In this document: one piece after another, positions 1-40,619 of the stretch
How positions within the stretch are numbered: the stretch's first letter is position 1
How the letters are laid out: each line of letters starts with the position of its first letter
Virus record (IMG/VR): IMGVR_UViG_3300045988_070645
Location: 1 to 40,619 of that record
Origin: a virus
Length of the DNA: 40,619 nucleotides
Reading direction: 5' to 3' (one strand)
Program-made: the position numbers and the translations under genes
The notes under the pieces: generated by a model
What the model was told of the DNA's origin: nothing
Database searches by the model: none
What the model saw: only the letters and a program-made list of their open reading frames with translations

Positions 1-70
1 AGGCCGCGGAACTGAAGGCCGCGGAACTGAAGGCCGCGGAACTGAAGGCCGCGGAACTGAAGGCCGCGGA
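1..70 (+). repeat. Perfect 15-bp tandem array (4.7 units). It is an in-frame coding repeat (KAAEL)n and the same array as 40541..40619.
   Basis: Read directly. Units start at 1, 16, 31, 46 and 61, and the array diverges at nt 71. Each unit contains CCGCGG. Confidence 0.95.
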
Positions 71-131
71 GGATGTGACCGTGTGGCCCCTCAACGATAA
101 AGAAAAACAGATCATCGGAAAACTCGGTTAA
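1..131 (+). CDS. C-terminal end of the methyltransferase-like ORF that starts at 39860 and wraps across the window ends.
   Basis: Frame 3 continues the AAELK repeats, then EDVTVWPLNDKEKQIIGKLG, with TAA at 129-131. Confidence 0.7.
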   Translation, partial: AAELKAAELKAAELKAAELKAAEDVTVWPLNDKEKQIIGKLG

Positions 132-136
132 ACATC

Positions 137-173
137 GCCCCTCTTTCAGCTATGGCTGGGGGAGGGGCTTTTT
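137..173 (+). terminator. Rho-independent terminator
   Basis: GCCCCTC(137-143) pairs with GAGGGGC(162-168). The inner CAGC/GCTG extends the stem, and TTTTT follows at 169-173. Confidence 0.7.
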
Positions 174-199
174 GTGTTTCGCACGGTAGAATCATCATC

Positions 200-361
200 A
201 TGACCAAGAAAGAGCATGATGATTTTTGGACGAAGTGGAAGCGCGAGCTCACGAAGGATGTGAAGGCCGACAGGATACACGGCGGTGAAGCTGATTTCAG
301 CCGAATGCATGGCGTGACATTGGACACTCAAAAACTGTATGACATGCTACCGCGAGTCTGA
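200..361 (+). CDS. Hypothetical 53-aa protein, a moron lying between two terminators.
   Basis: Internal ATG of ORF 152..361. TAGAAT at 187-192 lies 7 nt upstream, which suggests a leaderless transcript. Confidence 0.4.
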   Translation: MTKKEHDDFWTKWKRELTKDVKADRIHGGEADFSRMHGVTLDTQKLYDMLPRV

Positions 362-364
362 ATT

Positions 365-402
365 GCCCCTCTCTTAGCTTCCGTGCTGTGGGAGGGGCTT
401 TT
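365..402 (+). terminator. Rho-independent terminator between convergent genes
   Basis: GCCCCTCTC(365-373) pairs with GGGAGGGGC(390-398), followed by TTTT at 399-402. Confidence 0.65.
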
Positions 403-417
403 CTGCGTTGCCGGTGG

Positions 418-714
418 TCACAATGCCGGGTATGCGCTCCGGTCGAGTTCCGTCACATCCACGAACGTATTCGGCTGCGGGCCGCATTCGGCGAAGTCGC
501 CGATACCGGCCACCATGTCGTTCGCCTGTTCGATGCAGTAATCGACGTCATCCACGATGTAGGCGGGCTCCATGCTGTCGTCGGCGAAGCAGGTCTCCAG
601 GTTTCCGACCTCGAAGAAGTCGGCCGACCAGTCGGGGCCGTAACCCGGATTCTCCTCGTCCCACTCGCGGATGCTGATTTCCACTGCCTTGTTGTTGTCG
701 ATGAGCGTGACCAT
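418..714 (-). CDS. Small, highly acidic 98-aa protein (acidic protein 1)
   Basis: ATG at 714 is preceded by AAGGAC within the 77-bp repeat. The protein is rich in D/E (WDEENPGYGPDWSADFFEV). Confidence 0.6.
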   Translation of the reverse strand: MVTLIDNNKAVEISIREWDEENPGYGPDWSADFFEVGNLETCFADDSMEPAYIVDDVDYCIEQANDMVAGIGDFAECGPQPNTFVDVTELDRSAYPAL

Positions 715-788
715 TTGGTTTGTCCTTTCTTTTGCTGACATGATTAATATTACTACTACAGTGGTAATAATCAAGTTGGGCGTGTCGC
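712..788 (-). repeat. 77-bp direct repeat, copy 1, carrying a promoter/5'UTR/ATG
   Basis: Identical base for base to 2952..3028. On the minus strand it reads TTGATT..TAGTAATATT..AAGGAC..ATG. Confidence 0.95.
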
Positions 789-789
789 A

Positions 790-1017
790 TCACTCACTCA
801 ATCCGGCCCAGAAATCATCCAACGTCACACCCAATTCGTCCGCCAGCACCTTGGCCGTGGCAAACCCCATCAAATGCGGGTCACGCGCCGACTTCGGACG
901 TGGACTGTCGGACCACGCCTCCCACGCCCACACGCGCCCCACGGTGCTGCTCCCAATCGCCCGGCACAGATCCTGCTGCGACAATCCGGCACGCTCGCGC
1001 ATCGACCTCAAACCCAT
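790..1017 (-). CDS. XRE-family helix-turn-helix protein (75 aa)
   Basis: GLSQQDLCRAIGSSTVGRVWAWE helix-turn-helix. The ATG at 1017 lies 1 nt after the recombinase stop. Confidence 0.6.
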   Translation of the reverse strand: MGLRSMRERAGLSQQDLCRAIGSSTVGRVWAWEAWSDSPRPKSARDPHLMGFATAKVLADELGVTLDDFWAGLSE

Positions 1018-1018
1018 A

Positions 1019-1882
1019 TCAATCCTCCTTGCCCAGGTAATCCTGCAATCCGTCGCCAGCCTTGCCATTCAGCCCGCGACGGGACATGTCGTAATAGTCG
1101 AGCATCTGCGGACTGTTCCACCCGCCTGCGGCCATGATGTCCCTGTCCGGCACTCCCGCGTCGCGGGAGAGTGTGCAGAAGGTGCGCCGCAATGAGTGCG
1201 GAGATATACTTGGCACGCCGATCCGCAGGGCCACCGACGAGACGATGCCGACAGCCCGCTGATGCCGTAGCCGCACGCCGGAAGAATCACGGAACACCGG
1301 CCCATGCTTGCGGCGTCCGAGATGCCGGGCAAGCGCTTTGGCCGCATCGGACGGGACTGCCACGCGCTGAGACCAGTCGCCCTTGCGGTCGAACCGCACC
1401 CACGGGCGCCCGTCATCCAGGTGGCAGTCCTCGACGTCCAATCCGAGCACCTCGCCTATCCTCGCTCCGGTCAGCAGCAGCAGACTGCACAAGGCGTCCG
1501 TCTGCGCGTCCATGTGGCGCGCCTCGGCCAGGAAGGCCACGGCTTGGTCGCGTGTGAGGTATGTTCCGTCGGAATGGCCGTAGAGCCTCGGTCTGCGCAC
1601 GTGCTCGCCGGGGTCGGAGTCGATGTACCCCTCCTCGCAGAGGTAGCGGTAGAGGCAGCACACGACGCTCAGATTCTTGCACACCGTGTTTTTCGCTGCT
1701 GGCCGCATGCCGCCGTCATAGGCGGCGAACACCTCGATATGGGTGCGCTTCGCCCGCAGCATATCGATGCCATTATCCGCACACCAGCGGAGCCATCGCG
1801 ATACGACGCTCCGATACACGGCCCTCGTACCCGGCGACAACCCGGCGAGAAAACCGGCGATCATGTCGGTCAACGTCTCCAT
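1019..1882 (-). CDS. Second tyrosine recombinase (XerC/D-like)
   Basis: ARIGEVLGL (R), HSLRRTFCT (HxxR) and GGWNSPQMLDYYD (catalytic Y). The ATG at 1882 follows AAGGAGA and overlaps the upstream gene by 13 nt. Confidence 0.8.
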   Translation of the reverse strand: METLTDMIAGFLAGLSPGTRAVYRSVVSRWLRWCADNGIDMLRAKRTHIEVFAAYDGGMRPAAKNTVCKNLSVVCCLYRYLCEEGYIDSDPGEHVRRPRLYGHSDGTYLTRDQAVAFLAEARHMDAQTDALCSLLLLTGARIGEVLGLDVEDCHLDDGRPWVRFDRKGDWSQRVAVPSDAAKALARHLGRRKHGPVFRDSSGVRLRHQRAVGIVSSVALRIGVPSISPHSLRRTFCTLSRDAGVPDRDIMAAGGWNSPQMLDYYDMSRRGLNGKAGDGLQDYLGKED

Positions 1883-2739
1883 ATGCGCACCGTCTCCTTG
1901 CAGACAAGCGGCTTGTCGGCCGGACCCTTGACAAACGGTGGTATCCACTGGCGTCGGCGGAGCGAATGATTCGGCCCATACGCCTGATCGCGCCAGAAAC
2001 CACGCACGATGAAACGATGCGAATACTCACGCCGCACCCGCTCGTCATCATCGGCGCTTCCACCCGGACGATGCAGATTCTCACGCAACACCAGCATCTT
2101 GACCTTGCGGATCTCCGGCTCGAAGCGCGACGGCAACGGGTATCTCATGCTGGGTTCGGCGGGCTTGGTGTCGCAGATCCGCGGCTCGCCGCTCAACGCC
2201 CAGACGGCTTGCAGATAGTCAATCCATGCTTTTTGAAACACGGCATCCGCATCGTGGATGGATTTTGCCCTAGCTGCCGTCAAGTCAAGCCAATCGATAG
2301 GCAGACCGATGGAGTCCGCACCACTCTTCCGCAGCGATTCAGGATCATCGGTAAATGCCATGACGGAGGTCTCGCCATCGCCAATCCGATCCCAGAAGAA
2401 CCCCGCGACATTGCTGGTGATGCCAATCGACGACGTGTCTACCGGAACCCCACCCTCAATGAACATCACTCCGCTTGCGGCCGGGGCCTGCATCCGCGGG
2501 AAGTCGCCCTGCGCGGCGGTGTCGGCGGCAAGCTTGGCCATGTCGCGGCTGACCCACCACAATTGCGCGACGGACATCTGATCGATTTCGCTCCACATTC
2601 CATCCAAGATGCGCCGGTATTGCGGCTTGGCTTCGTACTGCCTCATCGCCCGTTCCCGCCAGACGGTGACGAATTTGTCTCGGATGAGCGGCAGGTGCGA
2701 TGGGGTTAGGCGGAGGCGCTTGTTTTTTCTGCGCGTCAT
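1870..2739 (-). CDS. Hypothetical 289-aa protein with no motif I recognise
   Basis: ATG at 2739 lies inside ORF 1870..3129. The gene is translationally coupled to the recombinase and has coding-like composition. Confidence 0.6.
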   Translation of the reverse strand: MTRRKNKRLRLTPSHLPLIRDKFVTVWRERAMRQYEAKPQYRRILDGMWSEIDQMSVAQLWWVSRDMAKLAADTAAQGDFPRMQAPAASGVMFIEGGVPVDTSSIGITSNVAGFFWDRIGDGETSVMAFTDDPESLRKSGADSIGLPIDWLDLTAARAKSIHDADAVFQKAWIDYLQAVWALSGEPRICDTKPAEPSMRYPLPSRFEPEIRKVKMLVLRENLHRPGGSADDDERVRREYSHRFIVRGFWRDQAYGPNHSLRRRQWIPPFVKGPADKPLVCKETVRIWRR

Positions 2740-2750
2740 GTCAGCCTCGG

Positions 2751-2954
2751 TCAGTTCGCGTTGTTTTCGAGGATTTCGGTGAACGTGTCGGCCGGCACGT
2801 CGTCGTAATCTTCGATGTTGTTGGCGGTCATGAAGTCGATCATGTCGGATGCCGCCCAATAGACGTCCCAATCGGACGGGTTCATGGAGGAGTTGGTGAG
2901 ATAGTCGTTGATGTAGTCTTGGGCGGTGGCCATGTTGATTTCCATGATGTTCAT
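2751..2954 (-). CDS. Small, highly acidic 67-aa protein (acidic protein 2)
   Basis: The ATG at 2954 sits at the same position within the 77-bp repeat as that of acidic protein 1. Sequence: MNIMEINMATAQDYINDY..DYDDVPADTFTEILENNAN. Confidence 0.6.
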   Translation of the reverse strand: MNIMEINMATAQDYINDYLTNSSMNPSDWDVYWAASDMIDFMTANNIEDYDDVPADTFTEILENNAN

Positions 2955-3028
2955 TTGGTTTGTCCTTTCTTTTGCTGACATGATTAATATTACTACTACA
3001 GTGGTAATAATCAAGTTGGGCGTGTCGC
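2952..3028 (-). repeat. 77-bp direct repeat, copy 2
   Basis: Identical to 712..788. The flanking sequence is unrelated. Confidence 0.95.
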
Positions 3029-3051
3029 GTATTAGACTGTGAAACGTCCTT

Positions 3052-3130
3052 TTTGCTGACACAAACGGACAAGAGGCGGAGCCGGGCAATGTAAAGCTCC
3101 GCCTCTCTTATAATTGGCCATGTCAGCAAA
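3052..3130. promoter_or_regulatory. Divergent control region: inverted TGTCAGCAAA motifs flank an 11-bp-stem hairpin and a TATAAT box.
   Basis: TTTGCTGACA at 3052-3061 and TGTCAGCAAA at 3121-3130. AGAGGCGGAGC(3072-3082) pairs with GCTCCGCCTCT(3096-3106). TATAAT at 3108-3113. Confidence 0.5.
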
Positions 3131-3140
3131 GGAGACCATC

Positions 3141-4310
3141 ATGGCCTACACGATCCGCCAATACGCGACGAAATCCGGCAAACGCTACGAAGTCAGATAC
3201 CGCAAGCCGGACGGCACGACCACAGGCAAAAGAGGCTTCCGGCGCAAGATGGACGCCGACGCATGGGGTGCGGCCAACGTGACCACCGCGAAAAGCGTCG
3301 GAGCATACATCGACCCGCAAGCCGGAAGACGCTTGGTCGAGGATTTTTGGGAGCCGTGGATAGCGGCCAAAAAGACCAAAGCCAAGCCAAGCTACGTCAA
3401 GTCGCTGGAAGACGCTTGGCGCGTGCATGTGGAGCCGCAGTGGGGCATGAGGGAAGTGCAGTCGATCGCGCGAGGCGAGGTGCAGGGGTGGGTCACCGAT
3501 CTGGCCGGACGGCGCAGTGCGTCCGTGACGATTCGCGCCGAGAATCTGCTTCGCAGTCTCATGGAGAGGGCGAAGGCCGATCGGTGCATCCATGACAATC
3601 CATGCGACGGCATCGAGCTGCCGCGCAAGCAGGTGCGGAAGCACGTCTATCTCTCGGCTGACGAATTGTCTCGTGTGGCGATGCAGTGCGGGTGGCGTGA
3701 GCCGATCGTGCTGACCTTGGGCCTGTGCGGCATGAGGTGGGGTGAGCTTGTGGCGCTCCGTGTCGAGGATGTCGATCTGCAACGCTGTCGGCTGCATATA
3801 TATAGGAGCATCACGCGTCTTTCCAGCAGGATGGTGGAGACCGACCCGAAAACCCATGATGGACGTTCGGTGATGTTTCCCCTGGTGTTGCGTCCACTGC
3901 TCGCCAGGCAATGCGAGGGGCGCAGGCCGTCCGATTTTCTTTTCACCGCTCCCGGCGAGCCTTTGGACGAGCCGATGGGGAATGGCTGGAATCCGACGCG
4001 AAGCGATGGGTGGTTCGCGGTGGCTCTTCGTCGCGCGGGCGTGGATCGTGGCCACATGACGATTCACGATCTGCGCCATACGGCCGCTTCGCTCATGGTG
4101 CAGTCAGGCGCGAACGTCAAGACCGTGCAAAGGCAGCTGGGGCACAAGTCGGCCGCCATGACATTGGATGTTTACGCCGATCTCTTCGATGATGATCTGG
4201 ACGAGTTGTCGGAGAGGATGGGTGGTTTGCTTTTTTCGCGGAATGTGGGCAAAATGTGGGCAAACGTGACGCAAGGTGTCGATGGAACCGTTGAAACGGT
4301 TGGTGTCTGA
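3141..4310 (+). CDS. int: Phage integrase (tyrosine recombinase)
   Basis: AAGGAGA RBS before the ATG at 3141. N-terminal arm-binding-like MAYTIRQYATKSGKRYEVRYRKPDG, plus MRWGEL (R), HDLRHTAAS (HxxR) and LDVYADL (Y). It lies next to the attP-like site. Confidence 0.9.
   Translation: MAYTIRQYATKSGKRYEVRYRKPDGTTTGKRGFRRKMDADAWGAANVTTAKSVGAYIDPQAGRRLVEDFWEPWIAAKKTKAKPSYVKSLEDAWRVHVEPQWGMREVQSIARGEVQGWVTDLAGRRSASVTIRAENLLRSLMERAKADRCIHDNPCDGIELPRKQVRKHVYLSADELSRVAMQCGWREPIVLTLGLCGMRWGELVALRVEDVDLQRCRLHIYRSITRLSSRMVETDPKTHDGRSVMFPLVLRPLLARQCEGRRPSDFLFTAPGEPLDEPMGNGWNPTRSDGWFAVALRRAGVDRGHMTIHDLRHTAASLMVQSGANVKTVQRQLGHKSAAMTLDVYADLFDDDLDELSERMGGLLFSRNVGKMWANVTQGVDGTVETVGV
4245..4262 (+). repeat. Putative arm-type site (GTGGGCAAAATGTGGGCA), copy 1, inside the int 3' end
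   Basis: 18-bp exact direct repeat of 4455..4472. Confidence 0.6.
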
Positions 4311-4322
4311 GGCTTTTTGCCG

Positions 4323-4347
4323 GTGGGTTCGAGTCCCGCTGGAGGCA
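4323..4347 (+). other. attP core candidate: the 3' end of a tRNA gene (T-arm, acceptor 3' strand and discriminator)
   Basis: GTGGG-TTCGAGT-CCCGC, then TGGAGGC-A. It lies immediately downstream of int. Confidence 0.65.
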
Positions 4348-4354
4348 CTTTTGG

Positions 4355-4385
4355 AAACCGCCAGAGATGGCGGTTTTCCTTTATT
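4355..4385 (+). terminator. Terminator following the tRNA 3' fragment
   Basis: AAACCGCCA-GAGA-TGGCGGTTT, followed by a T-rich run. Confidence 0.65.
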
Positions 4386-4416
4386 CTCCAACGGTTTTCA
4401 AGCTTTCCTATTTCAC

Positions 4417-4447
4417 TCTGATTCACGCTATTTCACGCTATTTCACG
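4417..4447 (+). repeat. 10-bp phased tandem repeat (ATTTCACGCT-like, x3), with a further CTATTTCAC at 4408
   Basis: Read directly. Units are spaced exactly 10 bp apart. Confidence 0.7.
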
Positions 4448-4454
4448 GAAAAAC

Positions 4455-4472
4455 GTGGGCAAAATGTGGGCA
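4455..4472 (+). repeat. Putative arm-type site, copy 2
   Basis: Exact repeat of 4245..4262 on the other side of the core. Confidence 0.6.
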
Positions 4473-4477
4473 CGGAA

Positions 4478-4984
4478 TCACCAGATCATCGGCAGTCCGA
4501 GGCATTGGCGCGCCCACTGTTCCACGGCACGATTCTCCTCATCGTCACCGAGCATGAGGAGATAACCGGCGTTCTTTCCGAGGGTGGCGGGCTGTAGACA
4601 TTTGATGAGTCCTTGGTCGCGGAGGAATTTCCATGCTTGGACGATTCGGACCTTGGCGGTGCCCTCACGTGCTTTCATCGCGGCCTCCACCTCCTCTTCC
4701 GACTTGCCGATGACTTGCTCGGGGGAGAGCGCCATCATTCCGTGGTCTTCGGCAAGCGTCTTCCAGCCCTTCGTGTAGTAGCGGCATGGATAGCCCTTGG
4801 ATTTAGCGTCACGGCTCGGCTCCTTGTGCTCGCTGTCCCAGTCGTAGCTTGAGAGCGCCATATCGAGGAGCACAAGCTCCGCCATCGTGTTCACCGTGAT
4901 CTTGCTGCCTCGCGGCTTGAGCAGTTTTCCTGCGCGGCTGAGCTCGTAGACTGCTCCAGCGTTGCGGTATCCCATCTTTTCCAT
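4478..4984 (-). CDS. Hypothetical 168-aa protein with a possible winged-helix C-terminus
   Basis: GGAGAGG RBS before the ATG at 4984. The longer 5062 start would run through a 12-bp perfect inverted repeat. Confidence 0.5.
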   Translation of the reverse strand: MEKMGYRNAGAVYELSRAGKLLKPRGSKITVNTMAELVLLDMALSSYDWDSEHKEPSRDAKSKGYPCRYYTKGWKTLAEDHGMMALSPEQVIGKSEEEVEAAMKAREGTAKVRIVQAWKFLRDQGLIKCLQPATLGKNAGYLLMLGDDEENRAVEQWARQCLGLPMIW

Positions 4985-5042
4985 CGCTTTCCTCTCCACG
5001 CCTAGAGGTAAAATCTTGCGTGGAGACGCTAGTCCGTTTCCT

Positions 5043-5082
5043 GCCCTTGGCGTGCTCTTCAAACCTCACGCCAAGGGCTTTT
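5043..5082 (+). promoter_or_regulatory. Perfect 12-bp inverted repeat followed by TTTT. It could be a plus-strand terminator or a 5'UTR hairpin of the minus-strand gene.
   Basis: GCCCTTGGCGTG(5043-5054) pairs with CACGCCAAGGGC(5067-5078). Confidence 0.55.
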
Positions 5083-5298
5083 CCTTATGTGGAATACTAT
5101 ACCACATGAGGTGTATTAAACACATCCACAGAGATATATTCTTTTAAAACTCATAGGGGTATTTAAATATACTATATACATGTAATACATGTGTTTATAT
5201 ATTTTTTTACAAGAGCGCCAATGCGCTGAAAAACGAAGAATCGGCACGTCCAATCCCCATCTGCGGTAGCTTGAAGCGGAGAGAAGGAAGGGGAAGCA
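5083..5298. promoter_or_regulatory. Markedly AT-rich divergent intergenic islet
   Basis: Runs such as TATTTAAATATACTATATACATGTAATACATGTGTTTATATATTTTTTT. Inverted repeat ATGTGG-N9-CCACAT at 5087-5107. Confidence 0.5.
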
Positions 5299-6084
5299 AT
5301 GAAGAAACTGATTTACCTCGTGCTATCCGTGCTGTGCGCAATCTCCGGCATCTACGGCATCTACGACACCATCACCACACCGCAGGATGATCTGGCCACA
5401 AGCATCATAACGATTCTGCTCCTCGCCTTCCTTGCATGGCTTTTCATGCATCTCTTCCTCAATCCGGAGCCGCGCCATAAGCATCAAGCGACGAATACGC
5501 CTGAATCGTCGCCGGAAGCACCCTCAGACGCTCCAACAGCGGAAACGGCACCAATCACCCACAGCAACGCGAATAGTGGCGTGGAGGACGATTACGTGGC
5601 TGTGGATATTGAGACCACCGGCCTAGGTCGTGACGCTCGAATCATCGAGCTGGGAGCCGTGAGAATCAGGCACGGACGCAAAGTCGCGTCATACAGCCAG
5701 CTCGTCAACCCCCAGATCCCAATACCAGCCAAGGTCACGCAGATCACCGGCATCGCCGACCGGGACGTCAAAGGCAAACCCACCATCGACAAAGCGCTAC
5801 CCAAATTCTACGCTTTCTGCGGGCGTGATACGTGGATAGGACACAATATTCGCCGCTTCGACATTCCGGTGATTGCCAGGGAAGCGCAGAGGGTCGGTGC
5901 CGGGATGCCGGACGTGAGCTTCTATGACACTTTGGAAGTCTCTCAGACGCTCTTGCCGCAGCTTGACCGCCATAGACTGCTCGACCTCATCCGCTATTTC
6001 GGCATCGCCAAGACCGAGCGTCATAGGGCCGCCGACGATGCTGCACAGACAGCGCAAATCTTCGAGCATTTGAAGCAGATATAA
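5299..6084 (+). CDS. Membrane-anchored DnaQ-like DEDDh 3'-5' exonuclease
   Basis: Two N-terminal hydrophobic helices (LIYLVLSVLCAISGIYGIY and IITILLLAFLAWLFMHLFL). Exo I is VAVDIETTG, Exo II is GHNIRRFDIPVI, Exo III is HRAADDAAQTAQIF. Confidence 0.75.
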   Translation: MKKLIYLVLSVLCAISGIYGIYDTITTPQDDLATSIITILLLAFLAWLFMHLFLNPEPRHKHQATNTPESSPEAPSDAPTAETAPITHSNANSGVEDDYVAVDIETTGLGRDARIIELGAVRIRHGRKVASYSQLVNPQIPIPAKVTQITGIADRDVKGKPTIDKALPKFYAFCGRDTWIGHNIRRFDIPVIAREAQRVGAGMPDVSFYDTLEVSQTLLPQLDRHRLLDLIRYFGIAKTERHRAADDAAQTAQIFEHLKQI

Positions 6085-30589: not shown

Positions 30590-33500
30590 ATGGCAAAGAC
30601 TTTGCACGCTCGACTCGTGGCCTATCGGCCTTTCGGTGACCGACTTGGTGTGCTGGCGGAGCCGGTGAGCTTCAGCGCGTCCATGCTCCACAATGATGAC
30701 GGCGCAATCAGCATCGAATACTCTCTGCTGTCCGGTGACGCGCAGGCTTTCGACCGTGAGCTGACCGATGGTCTCGAAGTGGCCGTGGAAGTGTCGGACG
30801 GTAGTGGCTTCAGGGAGCCGGATAATGCGCGATTCGTCATCACGGGCCGCTCCGGTAAGACGGATGACCGCACCAAGACCATCACCTACAGCGGCCAGTC
30901 GATTGGCTGGCTGCTGTCCAAGGCCGAAAACAACGATTCGTCGCATCTCATCACTGACGGGGACAACAAGGGTAAGCGGCCCTTCTATAGCTCCAATCCG
31001 GGCACGATTCTCAAGACGCTGCTGGACGAAAACCGTCAGCGTGGTGGCGTGGCCACCGGCCTGACCTTGGGCTTCGACACCGCCAAGGACGCGGCTGGCA
31101 GTAATTGGGCAAAAAAGTACACTCTGTACTATTCGCTCGGCACTGATTTGCAGACCATCCTGGACGCCCTGGTCAATGGTGGCGGCTGCGACTGGCGCAC
31201 CAGTGGCCGCGCCTTGAAGCTGTGGAATGCGGATAGCACCGCATTGAGCCGTGACTTGAGCAAGAGTATTGTGCTGCAGCTTGCGCGTGACATCAGCGAG
31301 GCACCCTTCGAGGAGTCCATCGCTGACCTCGCGTCCACCATCCTTGTCGAGGGTGACAATAATCTGCTCTTCCGCATGGATAATCCGGCCGCGCCGACGC
31401 CTTGGGGCAAGTGGGAGTCCTACAGCTCGCAGGGCGGCGTGTCCGACAAGGACACCGCGCAAGCATTCATGGCATCGACGCTGGCCGACGCCGCTAGAGT
31501 GCGTGGCCAGTACACGCGCGACCTGGTGACTTCCGGTGTGGACAGTCTGCCGCTCATTGACTATCACGCCGGTGACTGGATTACCGCACCAACCGTGGCT
31601 CACGGCGAGAAGGTCCGCGTGCAGGAAATCGACCTGAGCATGCGCCAGAATGAGGGACTGACTGCCTCAATCGCCCTGAATGATATTAAGTATGACGCTT
31701 CGGTACGTCAGGCGAAGAAAATCAAGGGCATCACCGGTGGCGCGGCATTGGCTGGCAGTGAGAGCGGCACCACCGTCTCCACTGACCATGATCATCGCGT
31801 GCCGGAGGCGCCGCAGGGTCTGGTCGTGCAGACCGACGCCTACATTGGCTCGGACGGTTTCGCACATGGTCTGGCCACCGCCATGTGGTCCGCCGTGACC
31901 GAAGCGACCGACAACACTGCTATCGAAATCTCGAATTATGCCGTCGAATGGAAACAGCATAAGGATGGCGCTCCGTGGCATTCGGCAGGCACGACGGACA
32001 AGACGCAGCTCGGATTCGGCAACCTGGACTGCGGCACTCAGATCGAGGTCAGGGTACGCGCCGTGCCGACATATTCCGACAAGCTGGGTGATTGGTCGGC
32101 TGTCGTGGTGGCCACCGTCGAATCCGACACCACGCCATGCTCAGTGCCCTCCAAGCCGACAGTCTTATCCAAGCTAGGCGTGGTCACCGTCCATTGGGAC
32201 GGCAAGACCGCTGCCGGCGCGCGGATGGAGCCTGACTTCGACCATATCGAGGTGGGCGAGGGCATCAATGCGGCTGGAATGCAGGTCATCAGCGCTACCC
32301 AATCTGGTCAGGGCGCTTACGTCATCACCGGTTTGACGGGCGGCTCACAGCATAGCTATGCCTTGCGCTCCGTCGATCATGCGGGCAATCGCTCCGACTG
32401 GTCGGCCATCGCCACGGTCACGGTGGCTTCCGCCGTCTCGCCGGATGAGGTCAAACAGATCCAAAAAGACCTGGCTGACAATCAGACGGCGTTGAAGGAT
32501 AATACGGCGAAGCTGACGCAGGCGCAGAAGGACATCCAAGCCAACAAGACAGGCCTTGATTCGGCGTCCAAGTCGCTCGCGCAGGCGCAGACCGATCTGT
32601 CTCAGGCCCGGAAGGACATCGCGCAGACCAAGAGCGACCTGACCACGGCGAACGGCGAGATCAGCAAGGCGAAGGAATCCGCGGCTCAGGCGTATGCCGA
32701 AGCGCACAGCAAGAACCATACGTTTCGTGGGCCGGACGAGCCGAAGGACAATCTGATTGTCGGTGACTTGTGGCTCAAGACCCAAAAGTATTGGACGAGG
32801 TGGAAAGGCGAGAAGAACAACAGCCCTAGCCTTCTGGCCGACTTCTACACCTACTGGCAGGGAACACCCAACAACAGCCCCTCCGTGCTCGTGCCGCTCT
32901 CCGATCGCGTGATCGACACGCTGGTGTGGGATGGCTCCTCGTGGAACCATCTCGGCTATGCCGATGTGGAGCGCAATGCCGACGAAATCGCTCAGGCGAA
33001 GTCCGACATCGCGGATAACGCCGCGAAGACCACCGACGCCAAGAAGACCGCCGAGAATGCCGCTGCCGCAGCGAAAAACGCGCAGGGCACGGCTGACACG
33101 GCCAATGGTGCGGCCAGGACCGCGCAGGATACCGCCAATGCGGCCAACGCTGCCGCGAAGAGTGCGACCACCACCGCCGGTCAGGCCAAGGACGCGGCCA
33201 ATGCCGCCCAGACCGCCGCCGAGAGCGCGAAGAAGACCGCTGGCAATGCGGAGACACTGGCTAACACTGCCAATGAGTCCGCCAAGTCCGCCAAGTCCGA
33301 CGCTTCCACCGCCAAGACGGATGCGGCCAATGCGAAGACCGCCGCTGCCAATGCGTCGAGCGTGGCGACTCAGGCCAAGGCCACCGCCGATAGTGCGGCC
33401 CAGTCCGCCACCGATGCGGCCAATGCCGCGCAGAAGGCCAATACCGCTGCTGCCGCCGCCGCTGGCGTGGCTAACGGCAAGGCCGACGTGCTTATCCAGA

Positions 33501-35545
33501 GCACGGCACCGGACGCTTCGATGCGCAAGGCTTCGACCTTGTGGATTGACACCACGAATGGCGCGAACACGCCGAAAAGGTGGAATGGGTCGGCTTGGGT
33601 TGCTGTGACCGACAAGGCCGCGACCGACGCCGCCAATGCGGCTGTCAAGGCGAATGATGCGGCCAAGACCGCTCAATCCACCGCTGACAAGGCGCAGACG
33701 GCTGCGGCCAATGCCGCGTCTCAGGCGAATCAGGCTCAGGCCGCAGCGCAGAAGGCGCAGACCACTGCGGACGGTAAGAATCTGATTTACCGTGGCCCCG
33801 ACGAGCCGAATCATGATGGCTTGAAGCCGGGGGACATGTGGTGGCGCACTCAAAAATATTGGACTCGCTGGAAGGGGGAGAAGAATAATTCTCCGAGCCT
33901 CTTGGCTGACTTCTACACGTATTGGCAGGGTGCGCCCAACGCCAGCCCCTCCGTGCTGGTGCCATTGTCTGATCGCGTGGTGGAAGTCCTCACGTGGGAT
34001 GGTACGCGCTTCGAGCCATTCGACCTCGTGGCGAACAACATCCTCGCTGCTGGCACGGTGGCCGCGAAGCATCTCGCCGCCGATAGCGTGACCGCCGAGA
34101 AGGTCAAGGCCAATGCCATCACGGTGGACAAGCTCGCGGCCAATTCGGTCACGACTGAAAAGCTGGTGACTGATGCGGTGACCGCCGCGAAACTCGCCGC
34201 CAACTCGGTGCAGGCTCGGAACATCGTCGCACTGTCCATCACGTCCGACAAGATTGCCGCCAATTCGGTGACCACGGGCAAGCTCAAGGTCACGGAAGAT
34301 ATGACCGTGGCGCTGCTCAACGTCCACAAGATTCAGGCGTCCGACATTGCGGCTAATGCCGTGACCACTGCCGCTTTGGCTGCTGGCGCGGTAAACGCCG
34401 ACAATCTGGCCGCTAATTCGGTCAATGCGTCCAAGATTGTGACTGGTGCCATCACCGCCGACAAGCTGGCGGCAAACAGTGTGACGGCCGTCAAGATCGC
34501 GGCTGGCACCATCACGTCCGACAAGGTGGCGGCGGGCCAATTCAAAGGCTACGTGTTCACCGGCGCCGTCTTCCAAAGCTCCGAGGCCGAGAACACCGGC
34601 ATGAAGCTCAACTCGACCGCATTGCAAATGTGGGATTCGGCTCATAACCAGACCGTCTACCTGGACGGCGAGGGGAAGAGCAATGTGCTGACCGGCACCT
34701 TCCAGACCCGCACGAGCGGGCACAGGGTGCGTATCAGTCCGGATTACAAGTCGCACGCGATTGCCGGGTCGGAGACTTTTACCGGTGACGGATTGGAGTT
34801 TTTGGCGTACAAGGATTCGATCGCATATTACAACTATCCTACGGTCGCGTCGCTCATCGAATCGAATCAGGTCGGCTTGATGAGCGAATTGGACTTGTGG
34901 AGCGGATACGTGAGCAAGAACGACCCCGCTGCTTTCATGAGTCTCAAATCGAAGCCTCGTGCGAAAGGCGGCACCGGCAGCGGCGTCACGTCACAAGTGT
35001 ATCTGCACGCCGACACGAATTATGACGAGTCCGACTTGTCGAAAAAAAGCTCCTCATGGCTCACCATGCATGGTGTCGGCGGATCGGGTGCAAGCGCGTA
35101 TCTCAACGTGCGCAGTGATTCCGGCAGCTTGTGCGAGGTCGGCGTGCACTCGCAGGGCGCGAAGGCCCGCGCGTACTGCACCGCATCCGACGCGAACGGC
35201 GAAATCGGCATGGTGTCCGACGTCAGCGCAGGCTATCTCTACCTCGGCGGCTATCTCGGCGGCATCACAAACCGTCACACTTTTCAAAGCACCAATTGGC
35301 GCATCTACCAGAACGCGACGCTGCCTGCCGATTTCACGATCCAGCAGACCACGTGGTCATGGACGCCGGCGAAATACGGCAGATACTACGGCGTGTGCAA
35401 TGCCGACCTCAACTTTGGATCGATCTCCATGCACGTGTGCAACACCGGCGGCGCTGGATCGATGCAGGTCATGGGATACAACGCCGGAAACGGCACCTAC
35501 AAGGGCGACATGTACGTCAACGCGTTCGCGTGGCTCGTCAAATAA
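30590..35545 (+). CDS. Tail-associated/minor tail fibre protein (1651 aa)
   Basis: Position after Dit. FN3-like segments, an Ala-rich coiled coil, ANSVTxxKL repeats and an internal 81-aa duplication. Confidence 0.8.
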   Translation: MAKTLHARLVAYRPFGDRLGVLAEPVSFSASMLHNDDGAISIEYSLLSGDAQAFDRELTDGLEVAVEVSDGSGFREPDNARFVITGRSGKTDDRTKTITYSGQSIGWLLSKAENNDSSHLITDGDNKGKRPFYSSNPGTILKTLLDENRQRGGVATGLTLGFDTAKDAAGSNWAKKYTLYYSLGTDLQTILDALVNGGGCDWRTSGRALKLWNADSTALSRDLSKSIVLQLARDISEAPFEESIADLASTILVEGDNNLLFRMDNPAAPTPWGKWESYSSQGGVSDKDTAQAFMASTLADAARVRGQYTRDLVTSGVDSLPLIDYHAGDWITAPTVAHGEKVRVQEIDLSMRQNEGLTASIALNDIKYDASVRQAKKIKGITGGAALAGSESGTTVSTDHDHRVPEAPQGLVVQTDAYIGSDGFAHGLATAMWSAVTEATDNTAIEISNYAVEWKQHKDGAPWHSAGTTDKTQLGFGNLDCGTQIEVRVRAVPTYSDKLGDWSAVVVATVESDTTPCSVPSKPTVLSKLGVVTVHWDGKTAAGARMEPDFDHIEVGEGINAAGMQVISATQSGQGAYVITGLTGGSQHSYALRSVDHAGNRSDWSAIATVTVASAVSPDEVKQIQKDLADNQTALKDNTAKLTQAQKDIQANKTGLDSASKSLAQAQTDLSQARKDIAQTKSDLTTANGEISKAKESAAQAYAEAHSKNHTFRGPDEPKDNLIVGDLWLKTQKYWTRWKGEKNNSPSLLADFYTYWQGTPNNSPSVLVPLSDRVIDTLVWDGSSWNHLGYADVERNADEIAQAKSDIADNAAKTTDAKKTAENAAAAAKNAQGTADTANGAARTAQDTANAANAAAKSATTTAGQAKDAANAAQTAAESAKKTAGNAETLANTANESAKSAKSDASTAKTDAANAKTAAANASSVATQAKATADSAAQSATDAANAAQKANTAAAAAAGVANGKADVLIQSTAPDASMRKASTLWIDTTNGANTPKRWNGSAWVAVTDKAATDAANAAVKANDAAKTAQSTADKAQTAAANAASQANQAQAAAQKAQTTADGKNLIYRGPDEPNHDGLKPGDMWWRTQKYWTRWKGEKNNSPSLLADFYTYWQGAPNASPSVLVPLSDRVVEVLTWDGTRFEPFDLVANNILAAGTVAAKHLAADSVTAEKVKANAITVDKLAANSVTTEKLVTDAVTAAKLAANSVQARNIVALSITSDKIAANSVTTGKLKVTEDMTVALLNVHKIQASDIAANAVTTAALAAGAVNADNLAANSVNASKIVTGAITADKLAANSVTAVKIAAGTITSDKVAAGQFKGYVFTGAVFQSSEAENTGMKLNSTALQMWDSAHNQTVYLDGEGKSNVLTGTFQTRTSGHRVRISPDYKSHAIAGSETFTGDGLEFLAYKDSIAYYNYPTVASLIESNQVGLMSELDLWSGYVSKNDPAAFMSLKSKPRAKGGTGSGVTSQVYLHADTNYDESDLSKKSSSWLTMHGVGGSGASAYLNVRSDSGSLCEVGVHSQGAKARAYCTASDANGEIGMVSDVSAGYLYLGGYLGGITNRHTFQSTNWRIYQNATLPADFTIQQTTWSWTPAKYGRYYGVCNADLNFGSISMHVCNTGGAGSMQVMGYNAGNGTYKGDMYVNAFAWLVK

Positions 35546-36505: not shown

Positions 36506-36676
36506 TTGACTCAGATTCCAGCCGACGCGAACGAGGTCATCGACTCTCTTTCCGCGCAAATCGGCACTCTCACCAAGCAAATCGCAATCCTGACCAGTCA
36601 GCTCAACGCGGCCATGAAATTGATTCCCGCCGACGTGCTCGAAAGCGTGAAGGGAGACGAGAATGCAGAGGATTAA
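36506..36676 (+). CDS. 56-aa coiled-coil micro-protein
   Basis: TTG start after AAGGAGA. IDSLSAQIGTLTKQIAILTSQLNAAM. The gene overlaps the next ATG. Confidence 0.4.
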   Translation: MTQIPADANEVIDSLSAQIGTLTKQIAILTSQLNAAMKLIPADVLESVKGDENAED

Positions 36677-37092
36677 CCTGTGGCCGAACCCAAAGTTCGA
36701 CCCCACCGGCTTCCATGTCGTCAAAAAGGGCGGCGACATATCGAAGTACATGACCGGTGGCACGCTGGCCAACACCAGAGGCGAATACATCGACCTGCCT
36801 TTCGCGTGCGAGGTCGGCGTGGAATACGTGTGCACGTACAGGATCGTCAGCAACAATACGACGAATAAAAGTATCGGCATCTTTTTCGGCGGCACGGCCG
36901 AATACCCAAGTGCCCAGACGGTCGGGAAATATACGATCCGCTTCACCCCGACCGCCAATGACACGCGCCTGGCCATCCCCTCCGGTATGGCCATCAGCGA
37001 ATTGAGCGTGGAAGCCGCCGACACGTATGACGCGGCGCTCGGGGGGGGGGCTTCCGGGCTTCTTCTCGGGGGACACGATGCCACGCGATTAA
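36663..37092 (+). pseudogene. CBM-like cassette A, frame-disrupted at a G10 tract as assembled. With 9 G it would give a 142-aa protein ending LPGFFSGDTMPRD.
   Basis: N-terminal INLWPNPKF. After the G-run, the frame shifted by one nt encodes the family's C-terminal motif and ends at TAA 37090-92. The in-frame read-through to 37511 looks out-of-frame (rich in R, H and D). Confidence 0.65.
37041..37050 (+). repeat. Homopolymeric G10 tract
   Basis: Read directly. Confidence 0.95.
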
Positions 37093-37119
37093 GACGATTC
37101 GTCGGGCGGGTGATGTCCG

Positions 37120-37488
37120 ATGATGGTCACGAACCTATGCACGAGCCCATCCTCGACCATCACCCTGAAAGCCGACAAGTGGGTGAATATCACGACCCTT
37201 CCGAGCGTGAATGGGGCGACATATCAGATCAGCGTCGAGGTGAACGTCACAGGCGGCACTATCTCGATAATCGGAGCGGATGGCGACATCAACGCAAGAC
37301 AACGTGTCAGCTACAAGATGATCATCAACAATTCCCATCCGATATCAATGAGTTATCACGTCAAGTCAGGCAGTCCGACCGTCACAGTGACGAACATGCT
37401 CATCTGCACGTGGGGCGAATACCAGGCGAACAAGGCATTGCTCGACGGCCTTTACTTTTTCGACGGGGATACGATGCCACGCGCCTAA
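37120..37488 (+). CDS. CBM-like cassette B (122 aa)
   Basis: Ends in YFFDGDTMPRA. Same size class as cassettes A and C. Confidence 0.6.
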   Translation: MMVTNLCTSPSSTITLKADKWVNITTLPSVNGATYQISVEVNVTGGTISIIGADGDINARQRVSYKMIINNSHPISMSYHVKSGSPTVTVTNMLICTWGEYQANKALLDGLYFFDGDTMPRA

Positions 37489-37507
37489 CCCTTTTGGGGG
37501 TGGTGGC

Positions 37508-37900
37508 ATGAGTCTCATCGTTAATCACTGCGTCATGCCGAAAGACGGTGTGAGCGTCAAGACGACGAACACGACACCATCGGACATCACCTTCACGGGG
37601 TTGACGGCGGGCGTGAAATACCATGCGAGCGTCGTCTGTTACATGCTGTCCACGAGTGGCGACAATCCGCGCTTGCGTCTCACCACCAATGGCAGCAATA
37701 GTGGGCTGGTCACTTCGAATGGTCGCGTGGATTACGTCTTCACCGCCGCCAGCACCACTCACGGCATTCTCGTCGGTCTGAACAATTGCACGGTCAATCT
37801 GAGCAAGGGCTTGTGCGTGCCTCAAGACCAGTGGCAGCAGCTCGTCTCGTTGGGATTGCCGGGCAATTATTTCGATGGCGACACCATGCCAAAAGATTAA
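37508..37900 (+). CDS. CBM-like cassette C (130 aa)
   Basis: Ends in GLPGNYFDGDTMPKD. GGGGGTGG RBS. Confidence 0.6.
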   Translation: MSLIVNHCVMPKDGVSVKTTNTTPSDITFTGLTAGVKYHASVVCYMLSTSGDNPRLRLTTNGSNSGLVTSNGRVDYVFTAASTTHGILVGLNNCTVNLSKGLCVPQDQWQQLVSLGLPGNYFDGDTMPKD

Positions 37901-39859: not shown

Positions 39860-40619
39860 ATGGGCATTAGACAGCAGACGATTGACGATTACGGTGCGTT
39901 CGTGGAGAAATTCAAGCCGAAGAAGACCACGGACGACTGCTATACCCCCCCCGCGGTATATGAGGCGATAAAGGATTGGGCATGCCGTGAGTATGGCATC
40001 GACCACAGCAAGGTGGTGCGTCCCTTCTATCCGGGCGGCGACTACGAGAGTTTCGACTATTCGGACGGCAAGGTGGTGGTGGATAATCCGCCGTTCTCGA
40101 TTCTGTCGAAGATATGCGCGTTCTACCGCGACCGTGATATTCCTTTCTTCTTGTTCGCTCCGAACCTCACGATTTTCAGCAGCACGTCGCGCAACGGCGC
40201 GCATATGCTGGTCACTGATTGCGCGATCGAATACGCCAACGGCGCTATCGTCAACACCAGCTTCGTGACGAGTTTCGGCGATGACCTGATTCGCACCGCA
40301 CCGGATCTGACGAAGCTGATTAACGATGCGGTGAAACGAGTCAGGCGCGAAAGCAAGAAACATCTGCCGAAGTATGCGTATCCGCCGGAATTGTTGACCG
40401 TCACACGACTGAATAAGGTCGGCAATGCTGGCGTGGATTTCCGCGTCAAGGCTTCGGATGTGGCGTTCACGCGGGCACTCGATTCGCAGAAGGCGGTAAG
40501 GAAGGCCATCTTCGGCGGCGGCTATCTGATGAGCGAGAACAAGGCCGCGGAACTGAAGGCCGCGGAACTGAAGGCCGCGGAACTGAAGGCCGCGGAACTG
40601 AAGGCCGCGGAACTGAAGG
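39860..40619 (+). CDS. N6-adenine DNA methyltransferase-like protein, first 253 codons. The ORF has no stop before the window end and continues at 1..131.
   Basis: DDCYTPP near the N-terminus and VVVDNPPFS (motif IV-like). A C8 run lies at 39945-52. The ORF ends in KAAEL repeats. Confidence 0.6.
   Translation, partial: MGIRQQTIDDYGAFVEKFKPKKTTDDCYTPPAVYEAIKDWACREYGIDHSKVVRPFYPGGDYESFDYSDGKVVVDNPPFSILSKICAFYRDRDIPFFLFAPNLTIFSSTSRNGAHMLVTDCAIEYANGAIVNTSFVTSFGDDLIRTAPDLTKLINDAVKRVRRESKKHLPKYAYPPELLTVTRLNKVGNAGVDFRVKASDVAFTRALDSQKAVRKAIFGGGYLMSENKAAELKAAELKAAELKAAELKAAELK
40541..40619 (+). repeat. 15-bp perfect tandem array (5.3 units), the same array as 1..70
   Basis: Read directly. The last 63 nt equal the first 63 nt of the window. 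Confidence 0.95.

Follow-up and report, generated by a model that had tools for sequence, protein, structure and literature searches.

Perfect 77-bp repeats around a second tyrosine recombinase gene in a Bifidobacterium temperate phage are probably duplicated promoter cassettes, not recombination sites

The IMG/VR virus record IMGVR_UViG_3300045988_070645 was analysed over its whole length of 40,619 nucleotides (the window). The two ends overlap exactly (1-70 equals 40542-40611), which makes the record a circular assembly, about 40.54 kb long, of a temperate Bifidobacterium phage; the overlap sits in a 15-nt tandem repeat that codes for (AAELK)n in a late gene ending near 130. The subject here is the module at 418-3028, in which two direct repeats of 77 bp, at 712-788 and 2952-3028, bracket the gene of a second tyrosine recombinase near the canonical integrase gene, int. 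A first-pass annotation of the same letters described the repeats as identical with unrelated flanks, and the DNA between them as four minus-strand genes, tightly spaced or overlapping. Both descriptions hold: the copies agree at 77/77 positions, lie 2240 bp apart from start to start and have different flanks, and the four genes lie between them as described. A fifth gene, gene 1, lies beyond the left copy. A perfect 77-mer repeat cannot have arisen by chance in 40.6 kb. The features of the region are listed below in + strand coordinates.

365-397: terminator, a GC-rich hairpin with a T run, at the end of both the leftward unit and the late genes that converge on it; also the left breakpoint of the variable slot
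418-714, minus strand: gene 1, a 98-amino-acid (aa) acidic protein, the second acidic gene, behind the left repeat copy
712-788, minus strand: P1, the identical second copy of the cassette, ahead of gene 1, beginning directly after the XRE stop codon
P1 landmarks: box 779-788; -35 769-774; palindrome 750-767; -10 747-752; leader 731-740; Shine-Dalgarno (SD) sequence 724-729; ATG 712-714
790-1017, minus strand: XRE-type helix-turn-helix (HTH) protein of 75 aa, HTH_3 domain, proposed autorepressor; begins 1 nt past the recombinase stop
1019-1882, minus strand: armless tyrosine recombinase of 287 aa, catalytic residues present; 13-nt overlap with the p289 stop
1870-2739, minus strand: p289, a 289-aa protein of PHROG 15934; N-terminal and middle parts variable, C-terminal 75 aa (residues 215-289) basic and nearly invariant
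2751-2954, minus strand: acid67, a strongly acidic 67-aa protein, first gene of the operon, no family match
2952-3028, minus strand: P2, predicted promoter-operator-leader cassette ahead of acid67-p289-recombinase-XRE
P2 landmarks: GCGACACGCC box 3019-3028; -35 TTGATT 3009-3014; palindrome 2990-3007; -10 TAATAT 2987-2992; leader TGTCAGCAAA 2971-2980; SD AAAGGA 2964-2969; ATG 2952-2954
750-767 and 2990-3007: predicted operator, the 18-bp palindrome TTACYAC-N4-GTRGTAA, inside the promoter spacer
3029-3140: spacer between P2 and int, with an 11-bp GC hairpin at 3072-3106 (fold z = -4.5) and the int -10 TATAAT at 3108-3113
3141-4310, plus strand: int, canonical arm-type phage integrase of 389 aa
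4311-4480: attP region, with arm-like repeats and the prophage junction near 4472

Each repeat, read in minus-strand order, consists of GCGACACGCC-CAAC-TTGATT-(16 nt)-TAATAT-TAATC-ATGTCAGCAAAAG-AAAGGA-CAAACCAA-ATG, in which TTGATT and TAATAT would form a sigma-70-type promoter; its 5' edge is at the stop codon of the preceding gene, and its 3' edge is the ATG of a small acidic protein with AAAGGA ahead of it. The conserved leader of each copy runs ATGTCAGCAAA... The palindrome, which is TTACCAC-TGTA-GTAGTAA in the window, has only these two occurrences in the genome, against 0.04 expected by chance. The leader motif TGTCAGCAAA is present in four perfect copies, all within one 2.4-kb region of the window: one in each repeat (731-740 and 2971-2980), one in the int leader and one, an orphan that looks like a leader relic, upstream of P2. 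The int-leader copy (3121-3130, plus strand) and the orphan (3052-3061, minus strand) flank the spacer hairpin in inverted orientation. The same leader also precedes the p289 operon in another phage type, and it may be a shared transcript start or a signal in the 5' untranslated region. An Rfam scan of positions 1-5400 gave nothing relevant. No terminator lies between the XRE gene and P1, and the leftward unit ends at the 365-397 hairpin.

The framework of the cassette (box, -35, palindrome, -10, TGTCAGCAAA leader, AAGGA and ATG) heads transcription units in many Bifidobacterium phages and prophages. About 25 family members from at least five lineages have the box, -35, -10, leader, SD and ATG all in register, and the small acidic gene behind the unit differs from phage to phage (acid67, MTTAIDI..., MSTIIDQ..., MFTATN... 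or a 166-aa protein). Among the relatives, cited here by locus number (L001 and so on; high-GC loci were read from tblastn maps and precomputed gene calls), the outer half-sites TTAC...GTAA are kept while the inner bases of the palindrome vary symmetrically, and every operator type pairs with its own XRE recognition helix, as follows.

Operator CCAC/GTGG, window type: XRE 90-97% identical to the window protein, helix SSTVGRVWAWE
Operator CTACG/CGTGG, L012: XRE 72% identical to the window protein, helix SRTVSRVWAWE
Operator CTCC/GGAG, L071: XRE 68-69% identical to the window protein, helix CSAVGRVWSWE
Operator CCGCA/TGCGG, L148-L151: XRE 58% identical to the window protein, helix INS(V/I)SYFWALE

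The cassette and the recombinase are also found apart. In the recombinase-free loci L153, L163, L148, L150 and L151 the promoter is followed by the 166-aa gene and then XRE. L165, which lacks p289 and the recombinase, has the promoter-then-XRE layout too, with a different first gene, and L001 has the cassette and XRE next to a recombinase reduced to a 19-codon remnant (3779-3883). Conversely, about 70 IMG/VR loci have p289 and the recombinase without XRE and without the promoter/operator part of the cassette, 18 of them keeping one copy of the leader part, and in L013 the p289-recombinase pair is likewise without the cassette. Since the cassette and XRE occur without the recombinase, and the pair without the cassette, the palindrome tracks the HTH protein and not the recombinase. 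Co-inheritance of repeat and recombinase fails as a test in both directions, with the cassette alone in at least six loci and the recombinase alone in about 70. All 12 loci that combine p289, the recombinase and XRE have two cassette copies.

The favoured reading, with a probability of about 0.75, is that the 77-bp repeats are a duplicated, repressor-controlled promoter cassette and not a recombination site, and that the recombinase-p289 block is cargo of a variable slot, the pair itself acting elsewhere. P2 would transcribe acid67-p289-recombinase-XRE and read through into gene 1, and P1 would add independent, equally regulated expression of gene 1. A dimer of the XRE protein would bind both operators, repressing its own operon and co-regulating gene 1, and in this way close a negative feedback loop on P1 and P2. 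The block from about 407 to 3012-3140 would be one cargo among several alternatives that can fill the slot between the lysis genes and int. Phages would swap these cargoes by homologous recombination, crossing over at conserved promoter boxes, at leaders and terminators, and within conserved coding stretches.

The layout resembles that of the operons under Aca repressors, which control anti-CRISPR promoters. In Aca-controlled anti-CRISPR operons, too, an inverted-repeat operator accompanies a strong promoter, the first genes encode small acidic hypervariable proteins, and a small HTH gene, the presumed repressor, comes last; in the window type the operator covaries with the HTH protein. Unlike in those operons, the 289-aa protein and the recombinase lie between the small gene and the HTH gene, the promoter occurs twice, and the small proteins have no anti-defence family match in Pfam, PHROGs, NCBIfam or PADLOC. 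With an inverted-repeat operator in the predicted promoter and a small HTH gene, the window operon appears to have an Aca-like, HTH-autoregulated layout. Neither acid67 nor gene 1 matches any family in the same four collections, and the predicted structure of gene 1 (predicted local distance difference test score, pLDDT, 84) has no match in the PDB. Copies of acid67 are identical or 97-99% identical in L004-L006, L025, L028 and L029, and in other lineages (L019 and L020) a homologue of gene 1 stands immediately upstream of p289.

The likeness of the two copies varies among the phages. Within each of seven genomes that share the layout, the two copies are 93.5-100% alike; from genome to genome the figure is 90%. 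L078 has a perfect 77/77 pair of its own that differs from the window's at several positions, and L012 has a 74-nt pair with one difference (99%) and another operator. The pattern appears to be one of partial concerted evolution, in which perfect identity is a state and not a conserved feature. Occasional gene conversion, or recent homologous exchange between the two promoters, would keep copies 2.2 kb apart alike.

Several points weigh against this reading. The promoter fits the consensus at 8/12 positions only and was not listed by a simple promoter scanner, and its function and that of the operator are deduced from sequence and covariation alone. Homogenisation of the copies reaches past the functionally constrained bases, which indicates recombination between the copies. 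Repeated units flank the recombinase block in three lineages (window type, L012 and the corynephage phi16), as a site-specific model would also predict. L006 and several other contigs of 2.2-2.7 kb end inside the repeats, and assembled contigs are a weak place for seeing rare excision products.

Relatives of the canonical integrase (n = 80, 60-99% identity) were compared with the window. Neither the module nor the repeat is present in 68 of the 80. The module occurs in loci from three contigs, with two repeat copies every time; XRE alone occurs in eight relatives, five of them with a single full or partial cassette copy, and one more has a partial cassette copy only. The arrangement of int, one repeat and gene 1 was found in 0/80. 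In relatives without the block, homology to the window ends at about 179-407 (terminator) and restarts at 3012 (the GCGACACGCC box) or 3140 (the int start), with other cargo between. The presence/absence polymorphism is real, but given these breaks its boundaries are not at the repeats. The block in common with the L025-type phage runs from 1015 (recombinase stop) to 2972, which is 21 nt into the repeat and inside the leader, and leaves out XRE and the promoter part, that is, most of the repeat. The window and L003 differ over 2215-2932, a segment with one end within the p289 coding region and not at a cassette boundary. The boundaries of the L025 and L003 segments look like signatures of homologous mosaic exchange.

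Degenerate patterns for the circle junction and the empty site had zero matches in IMG/VR and in Joint Genome Institute (JGI) metagenome contigs, assemblies of a kind that rarely captures rare circles; as a control, flank patterns in the normal arrangement matched 10 and 3 known loci. Many short public contigs (2.2-2.7 kb) hold just this module and break off within the repeat copies, among them L006 and the sources of proteins P0121-P0144. L006 (2238 bp) covers window 751-2988. It was considered as an excised circle and rejected, its ends stopping 37 nt into each repeat copy without an overlap. The ends of such short contigs in the repeats are probably assembly breaks at the repeat.

The recombinase had been called XerC/D-like in the first pass on the motifs ARIGEV, HSLRRT and LDYYD, and its neighbour an XRE HTH protein, and the Pfam matches bear out a tyrosine recombinase and an HTH protein (Phage_integrase, PF00589, 76.7 bits against a cut-off of 27.1; HTH_3, 24.2 bits). 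An alignment with XerD spans TGARIGEV, RKGD and SPHSLRRT, with the catalytic Arg, Lys and His-x-x-Arg, and GGW and LDYYD are read directly in the translation. The NCBIfam equivalogs for XerD (75 bits against 330) and XerC (65 bits against 335) stay below their cut-offs. The nearest relatives of the recombinase that carry an annotation, at 30-34% identity, are armless tyrosine integrases from phages of Arthrobacter, Gordonia and Mycobacterium. Armless integrases of the Brujita type resemble the window recombinase in size and domain layout and are its best annotated BLAST relatives. Brujita-type integrases act alone, beside a repressor and attP, and no p289 partner was found in Brujita-type phages.

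p289 belongs to PHROG 15934 (E = 2e-32; phi16 gp29 matches with E = 3e-112). The profile searches and structure prediction that had been proposed for it yielded this family and no function, with nothing from Pfam, NCBIfam, PADLOC or a PDB profile search. Its AlphaFold model (pLDDT 74.5) has no fold match in the PDB and is weakly similar to uncharacterised phage proteins (template-modelling score 0.3-0.4). Variation in the N-terminal part of p289 tends to go along with a change of the upstream acidic gene. The family comprises 6709 representative clusters at E <= 0.001 and 2718 at E <= 1e-10 (proteins P0241-P0381), with no Pfam model and no name, and is among the larger unannotated protein families of phages and mobile elements. 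The distant relatives, in which informative fusions and neighbours were sought, are unnamed proteins only and are not always beside a recombinase. Just 9 GenBank phage records contain a match.

The genes of p289 and the recombinase, which overlap, occur as a unit at 11 loci of Bifidobacteriaceae genomes and 80 of IMG/VR, and the overlapping pair is conserved in more than 100 actinobacterial phage loci. Its contexts number at least three. In the window type and L019 it has the lysis genes on one side and a canonical integrase on the other; in B. moukalabense L012 (BJEZ01000001, around 320-337 kb) and B. animalis L013 (AWFN01000003, around 811-828 kb) it is at a prophage end beside host genes, with no canonical integrase within 8 kb; and in the isolate genomes L185-L187 it is between the early genes and terminase, where more than 10 kb of phage DNA on each side means that it is not at a prophage end. 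Besides the L001 remnant, the recombinase gene is split into two open reading frames (ORFs) in L186 (10762-11626) and gives two-piece matches in L042 and L087; this decay indicates that it is dispensable for those phages. The pair is most likely a two-protein site-specific recombination system, with p289 as an accessory or specificity partner of the armless recombinase. Its target would be neither the phage attP nor the 77-bp repeat, and this is the weakest step of the explanation.

GenBank phages with the pair are Bifidobacterium phage BigBern1 and corynephage phi16 (gp29/gp28). In phi16 (KY250482), as in the window, a PHROG 15934 gene (ORF29) is followed by an overlapping armless recombinase gene (ORF28), the pair lies between the lysis genes and a canonical integrase (the experimentally proven gp33) with small genes upstream, and repeated promoter/leader units flank the block. 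Identity is only 24% for p289 and 34% for the recombinase, however, and no XRE gene follows the phi16 recombinase. The phi16 repeats, of 138 nt and 81% alike, precede ORF31 and ORF27 (L189, 3787-3924 and 6673-6812) and are unrelated to the window's in sequence. The phi16 paper describes gp28 as a "second putative integrase" and reports that it was unable to use the attP of phi16 and that the vicinity yielded no other attP (PMC5506516). The phi16 recombinase has thus been tested and failed on the phage attP, whereas that of the window is known from its sequence only. BigBern1 has repeats of 76 nt, 97% alike and with the GCGACACGCC box (L188, 3580-3655 and 4518-4593), which flank two other genes and not the recombinase. 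Both of these phages thus use one promoter/leader unit at least twice within a single gene array. The window pair belongs to a module conserved among temperate phages of actinobacteria, with phi16 gp29-gp28 as the type example.

A second, armless, XerD-like recombinase next to a canonical integrase in a Bifidobacterium temperate phage is also reminiscent of Rin, the tyrosine invertase of a shufflon in Bifidobacterium prophages (PMC6109161). A Rin shufflon was considered and rejected: the window lacks both the rix site TTCCCTAACCC and the CAGGGTTA inversion site, and it contains no convincing inverted repeats or segments. The window recombinase, unlike Rin, is not adjacent to receptor-binding-protein cassettes.

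In the first-pass annotation the repeats were candidate attL and attR of a nested mini-integrative element, with a 2240-bp circle as the product of excision. In a fuller form of this reading the recombinase (with p289) would excise the circle and reinsert it at the promoter/leader of small acidic genes. Such an element would carry its own promoter copy, much as tRNA-targeting elements carry the end of a tRNA gene. The direct repeats around a recombinase with catalytic residues, the similar flanking in L012 and, with unrelated sequence, in phi16, the patchy occurrence of the pair among close relatives in its several contexts, and the many 2.2-2.7-kb contigs bounded by repeats would all agree with it. 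The comparison that had been proposed, of presence or absence exactly at the repeat, speaks against it, as the 80 integrase relatives include no empty site and their breakpoints lie outside the repeats. Neither the circle nor the empty-site junction was matched in the IMG/VR and JGI contigs, within the weakness of assemblies for rare circles. The L025-type shared block omits XRE and most of the repeat, and L006 ends without the overlap expected of a closed circle. The palindrome reaches a centre of 2-4 bp, whereas the cores of tyrosine recombinases have an asymmetric overlap of 6-8 bp, and the BigBern1 repeats do not flank the recombinase. With the palindrome covarying with XRE, and the XRE-cassette and the recombinase pair assorting independently, the mini-element is very unlikely. 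The other early proposal was an integron-like platform, with the 77-bp unit as a promoter-bearing site of the attI/attC type for small gene cassettes. Part of it stands: the unit appears to provide a promoter, and different small acidic genes follow it in different phages. The integron-integrase models, in contrast, remain far under their cut-offs (TIGR02249, 26 bits against 265; NF011946, 15.6 against 435), and the single-strand fold of the 77-nt unit (-6 kcal/mol, z = -1.23) includes no stable attC-like hairpin. Gene swapping also takes place in the recombinase-free loci L153 and L163, the far end of the swapped segment falls inside p289 (window 2214), and no arrays of unit-separated cassettes were seen, leaving this proposal extremely improbable. 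What the window shares with attL/attR elements and integrons is direct repeats around a tyrosine recombinase gene; it differs from both in that its repeat is an expression cassette independent of the recombinase, with no empty site and no attC-like fold.

The repeats could also be promoters while the pair is an alternative integrase with a second chromosomal attachment site, serving as the sole integrase in some prophages. The kinship with armless tyrosine integrases (30-34% identity) suggests this, as does the position of the pair at a prophage end beside host genes in L012 and L013, with none of the canonical kind within 8 kb. The pair of L185-L187, however, is internal, flanked on either side by over 10 kb of phage DNA, and in phi16 no attP was found near ORF28 and gp28 did not use the known one. 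A second integration pathway is the leading guess for the role of the pair, if a tentative and rather unlikely one. More doubtful still is a self-contained and previously uncharacterised recombination system of acidic protein, p289 and recombinase, in which p289 would pick the target and which would spread, or provide a second integration, via recombination at promoters and leaders; the repeats in the window, L012 and phi16 would then be its footprints.

The canonical integrase supports the early view that the recombinase is additional to the enzyme of lysogeny, since an arm-type int with its own attP is present. int and attP had both been placed about 100 bp from the repeat; this is right for int, which starts at 3141, about 110 bp away, but attP lies at about 4311-4480. 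Homology to an integrated relative (L004) and to several provirus contigs ends at window 4472, beside arm-like repeats, which puts attP downstream of int and not in the 112-bp gap by the repeat. The arm-like repeats are AATGTGGGCA at 4242-4273 and 4452-4472 and CTATTTCACG, which occurs three times at 4408-4447, and a terminator-like hairpin (4353-4378) lies just 3' of int.

The slot upstream of int carries other small genes in most relatives. In 61 of the 80 integrase relatives (the L105-L183 slot) it contains one or two tiny membrane proteins and an HTH protein of 67-85 aa (PHROG 597), which by its position is a candidate excisionase. The PHROG 597 HTH cassette and the XRE cassettes are mutually exclusive in this slot, and a homologue of the PHROG 597 protein is absent anywhere in the window. 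XRE could be the directionality factor of the window phage, which would give it a double role.

Two regions elsewhere in the window also contain repeats. The first, 36663-37900, has three tandem paralogous small ORFs with a common 34-nt 3' end that codes for ...F(S/D)GDTMP(R/K)(D/A)*. These conserved ends are at 37059-37092, 37455-37488 and 37867-37900, and in the first ORF this end lies in a different frame from the coding sequence before it. Which of the cassettes are present varies among relatives, with breakpoints at the conserved ends, and the region may be a receptor-binding region of the cassette type. The second, 30590-35545, encodes a tail protein of 1651 aa. Its internal repeats, rich in Ala, Asn and Thr, are extensive at 33.0-34.5 kb, and the gene also contains a duplication of 173 nt (32762-32934 and 33830-34002, 74% identical).

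If the repeats are promoter cassettes, a false lead is removed, since perfect direct repeats around a recombinase gene would here come from promoter duplication and gene conversion and not from a nested element. The cassette family would also provide a clean natural case of an operator and the recognition helix of its repressor changing together. The "second integrase" of phi16 is one case of a gene pair that is widespread among the temperate phages of Bifidobacterium and its relatives, and the partner protein belongs to a family of thousands of unannotated sequences. The recombination target of the pair, once found, would fill a gap in the biology of gut Bifidobacterium phages.

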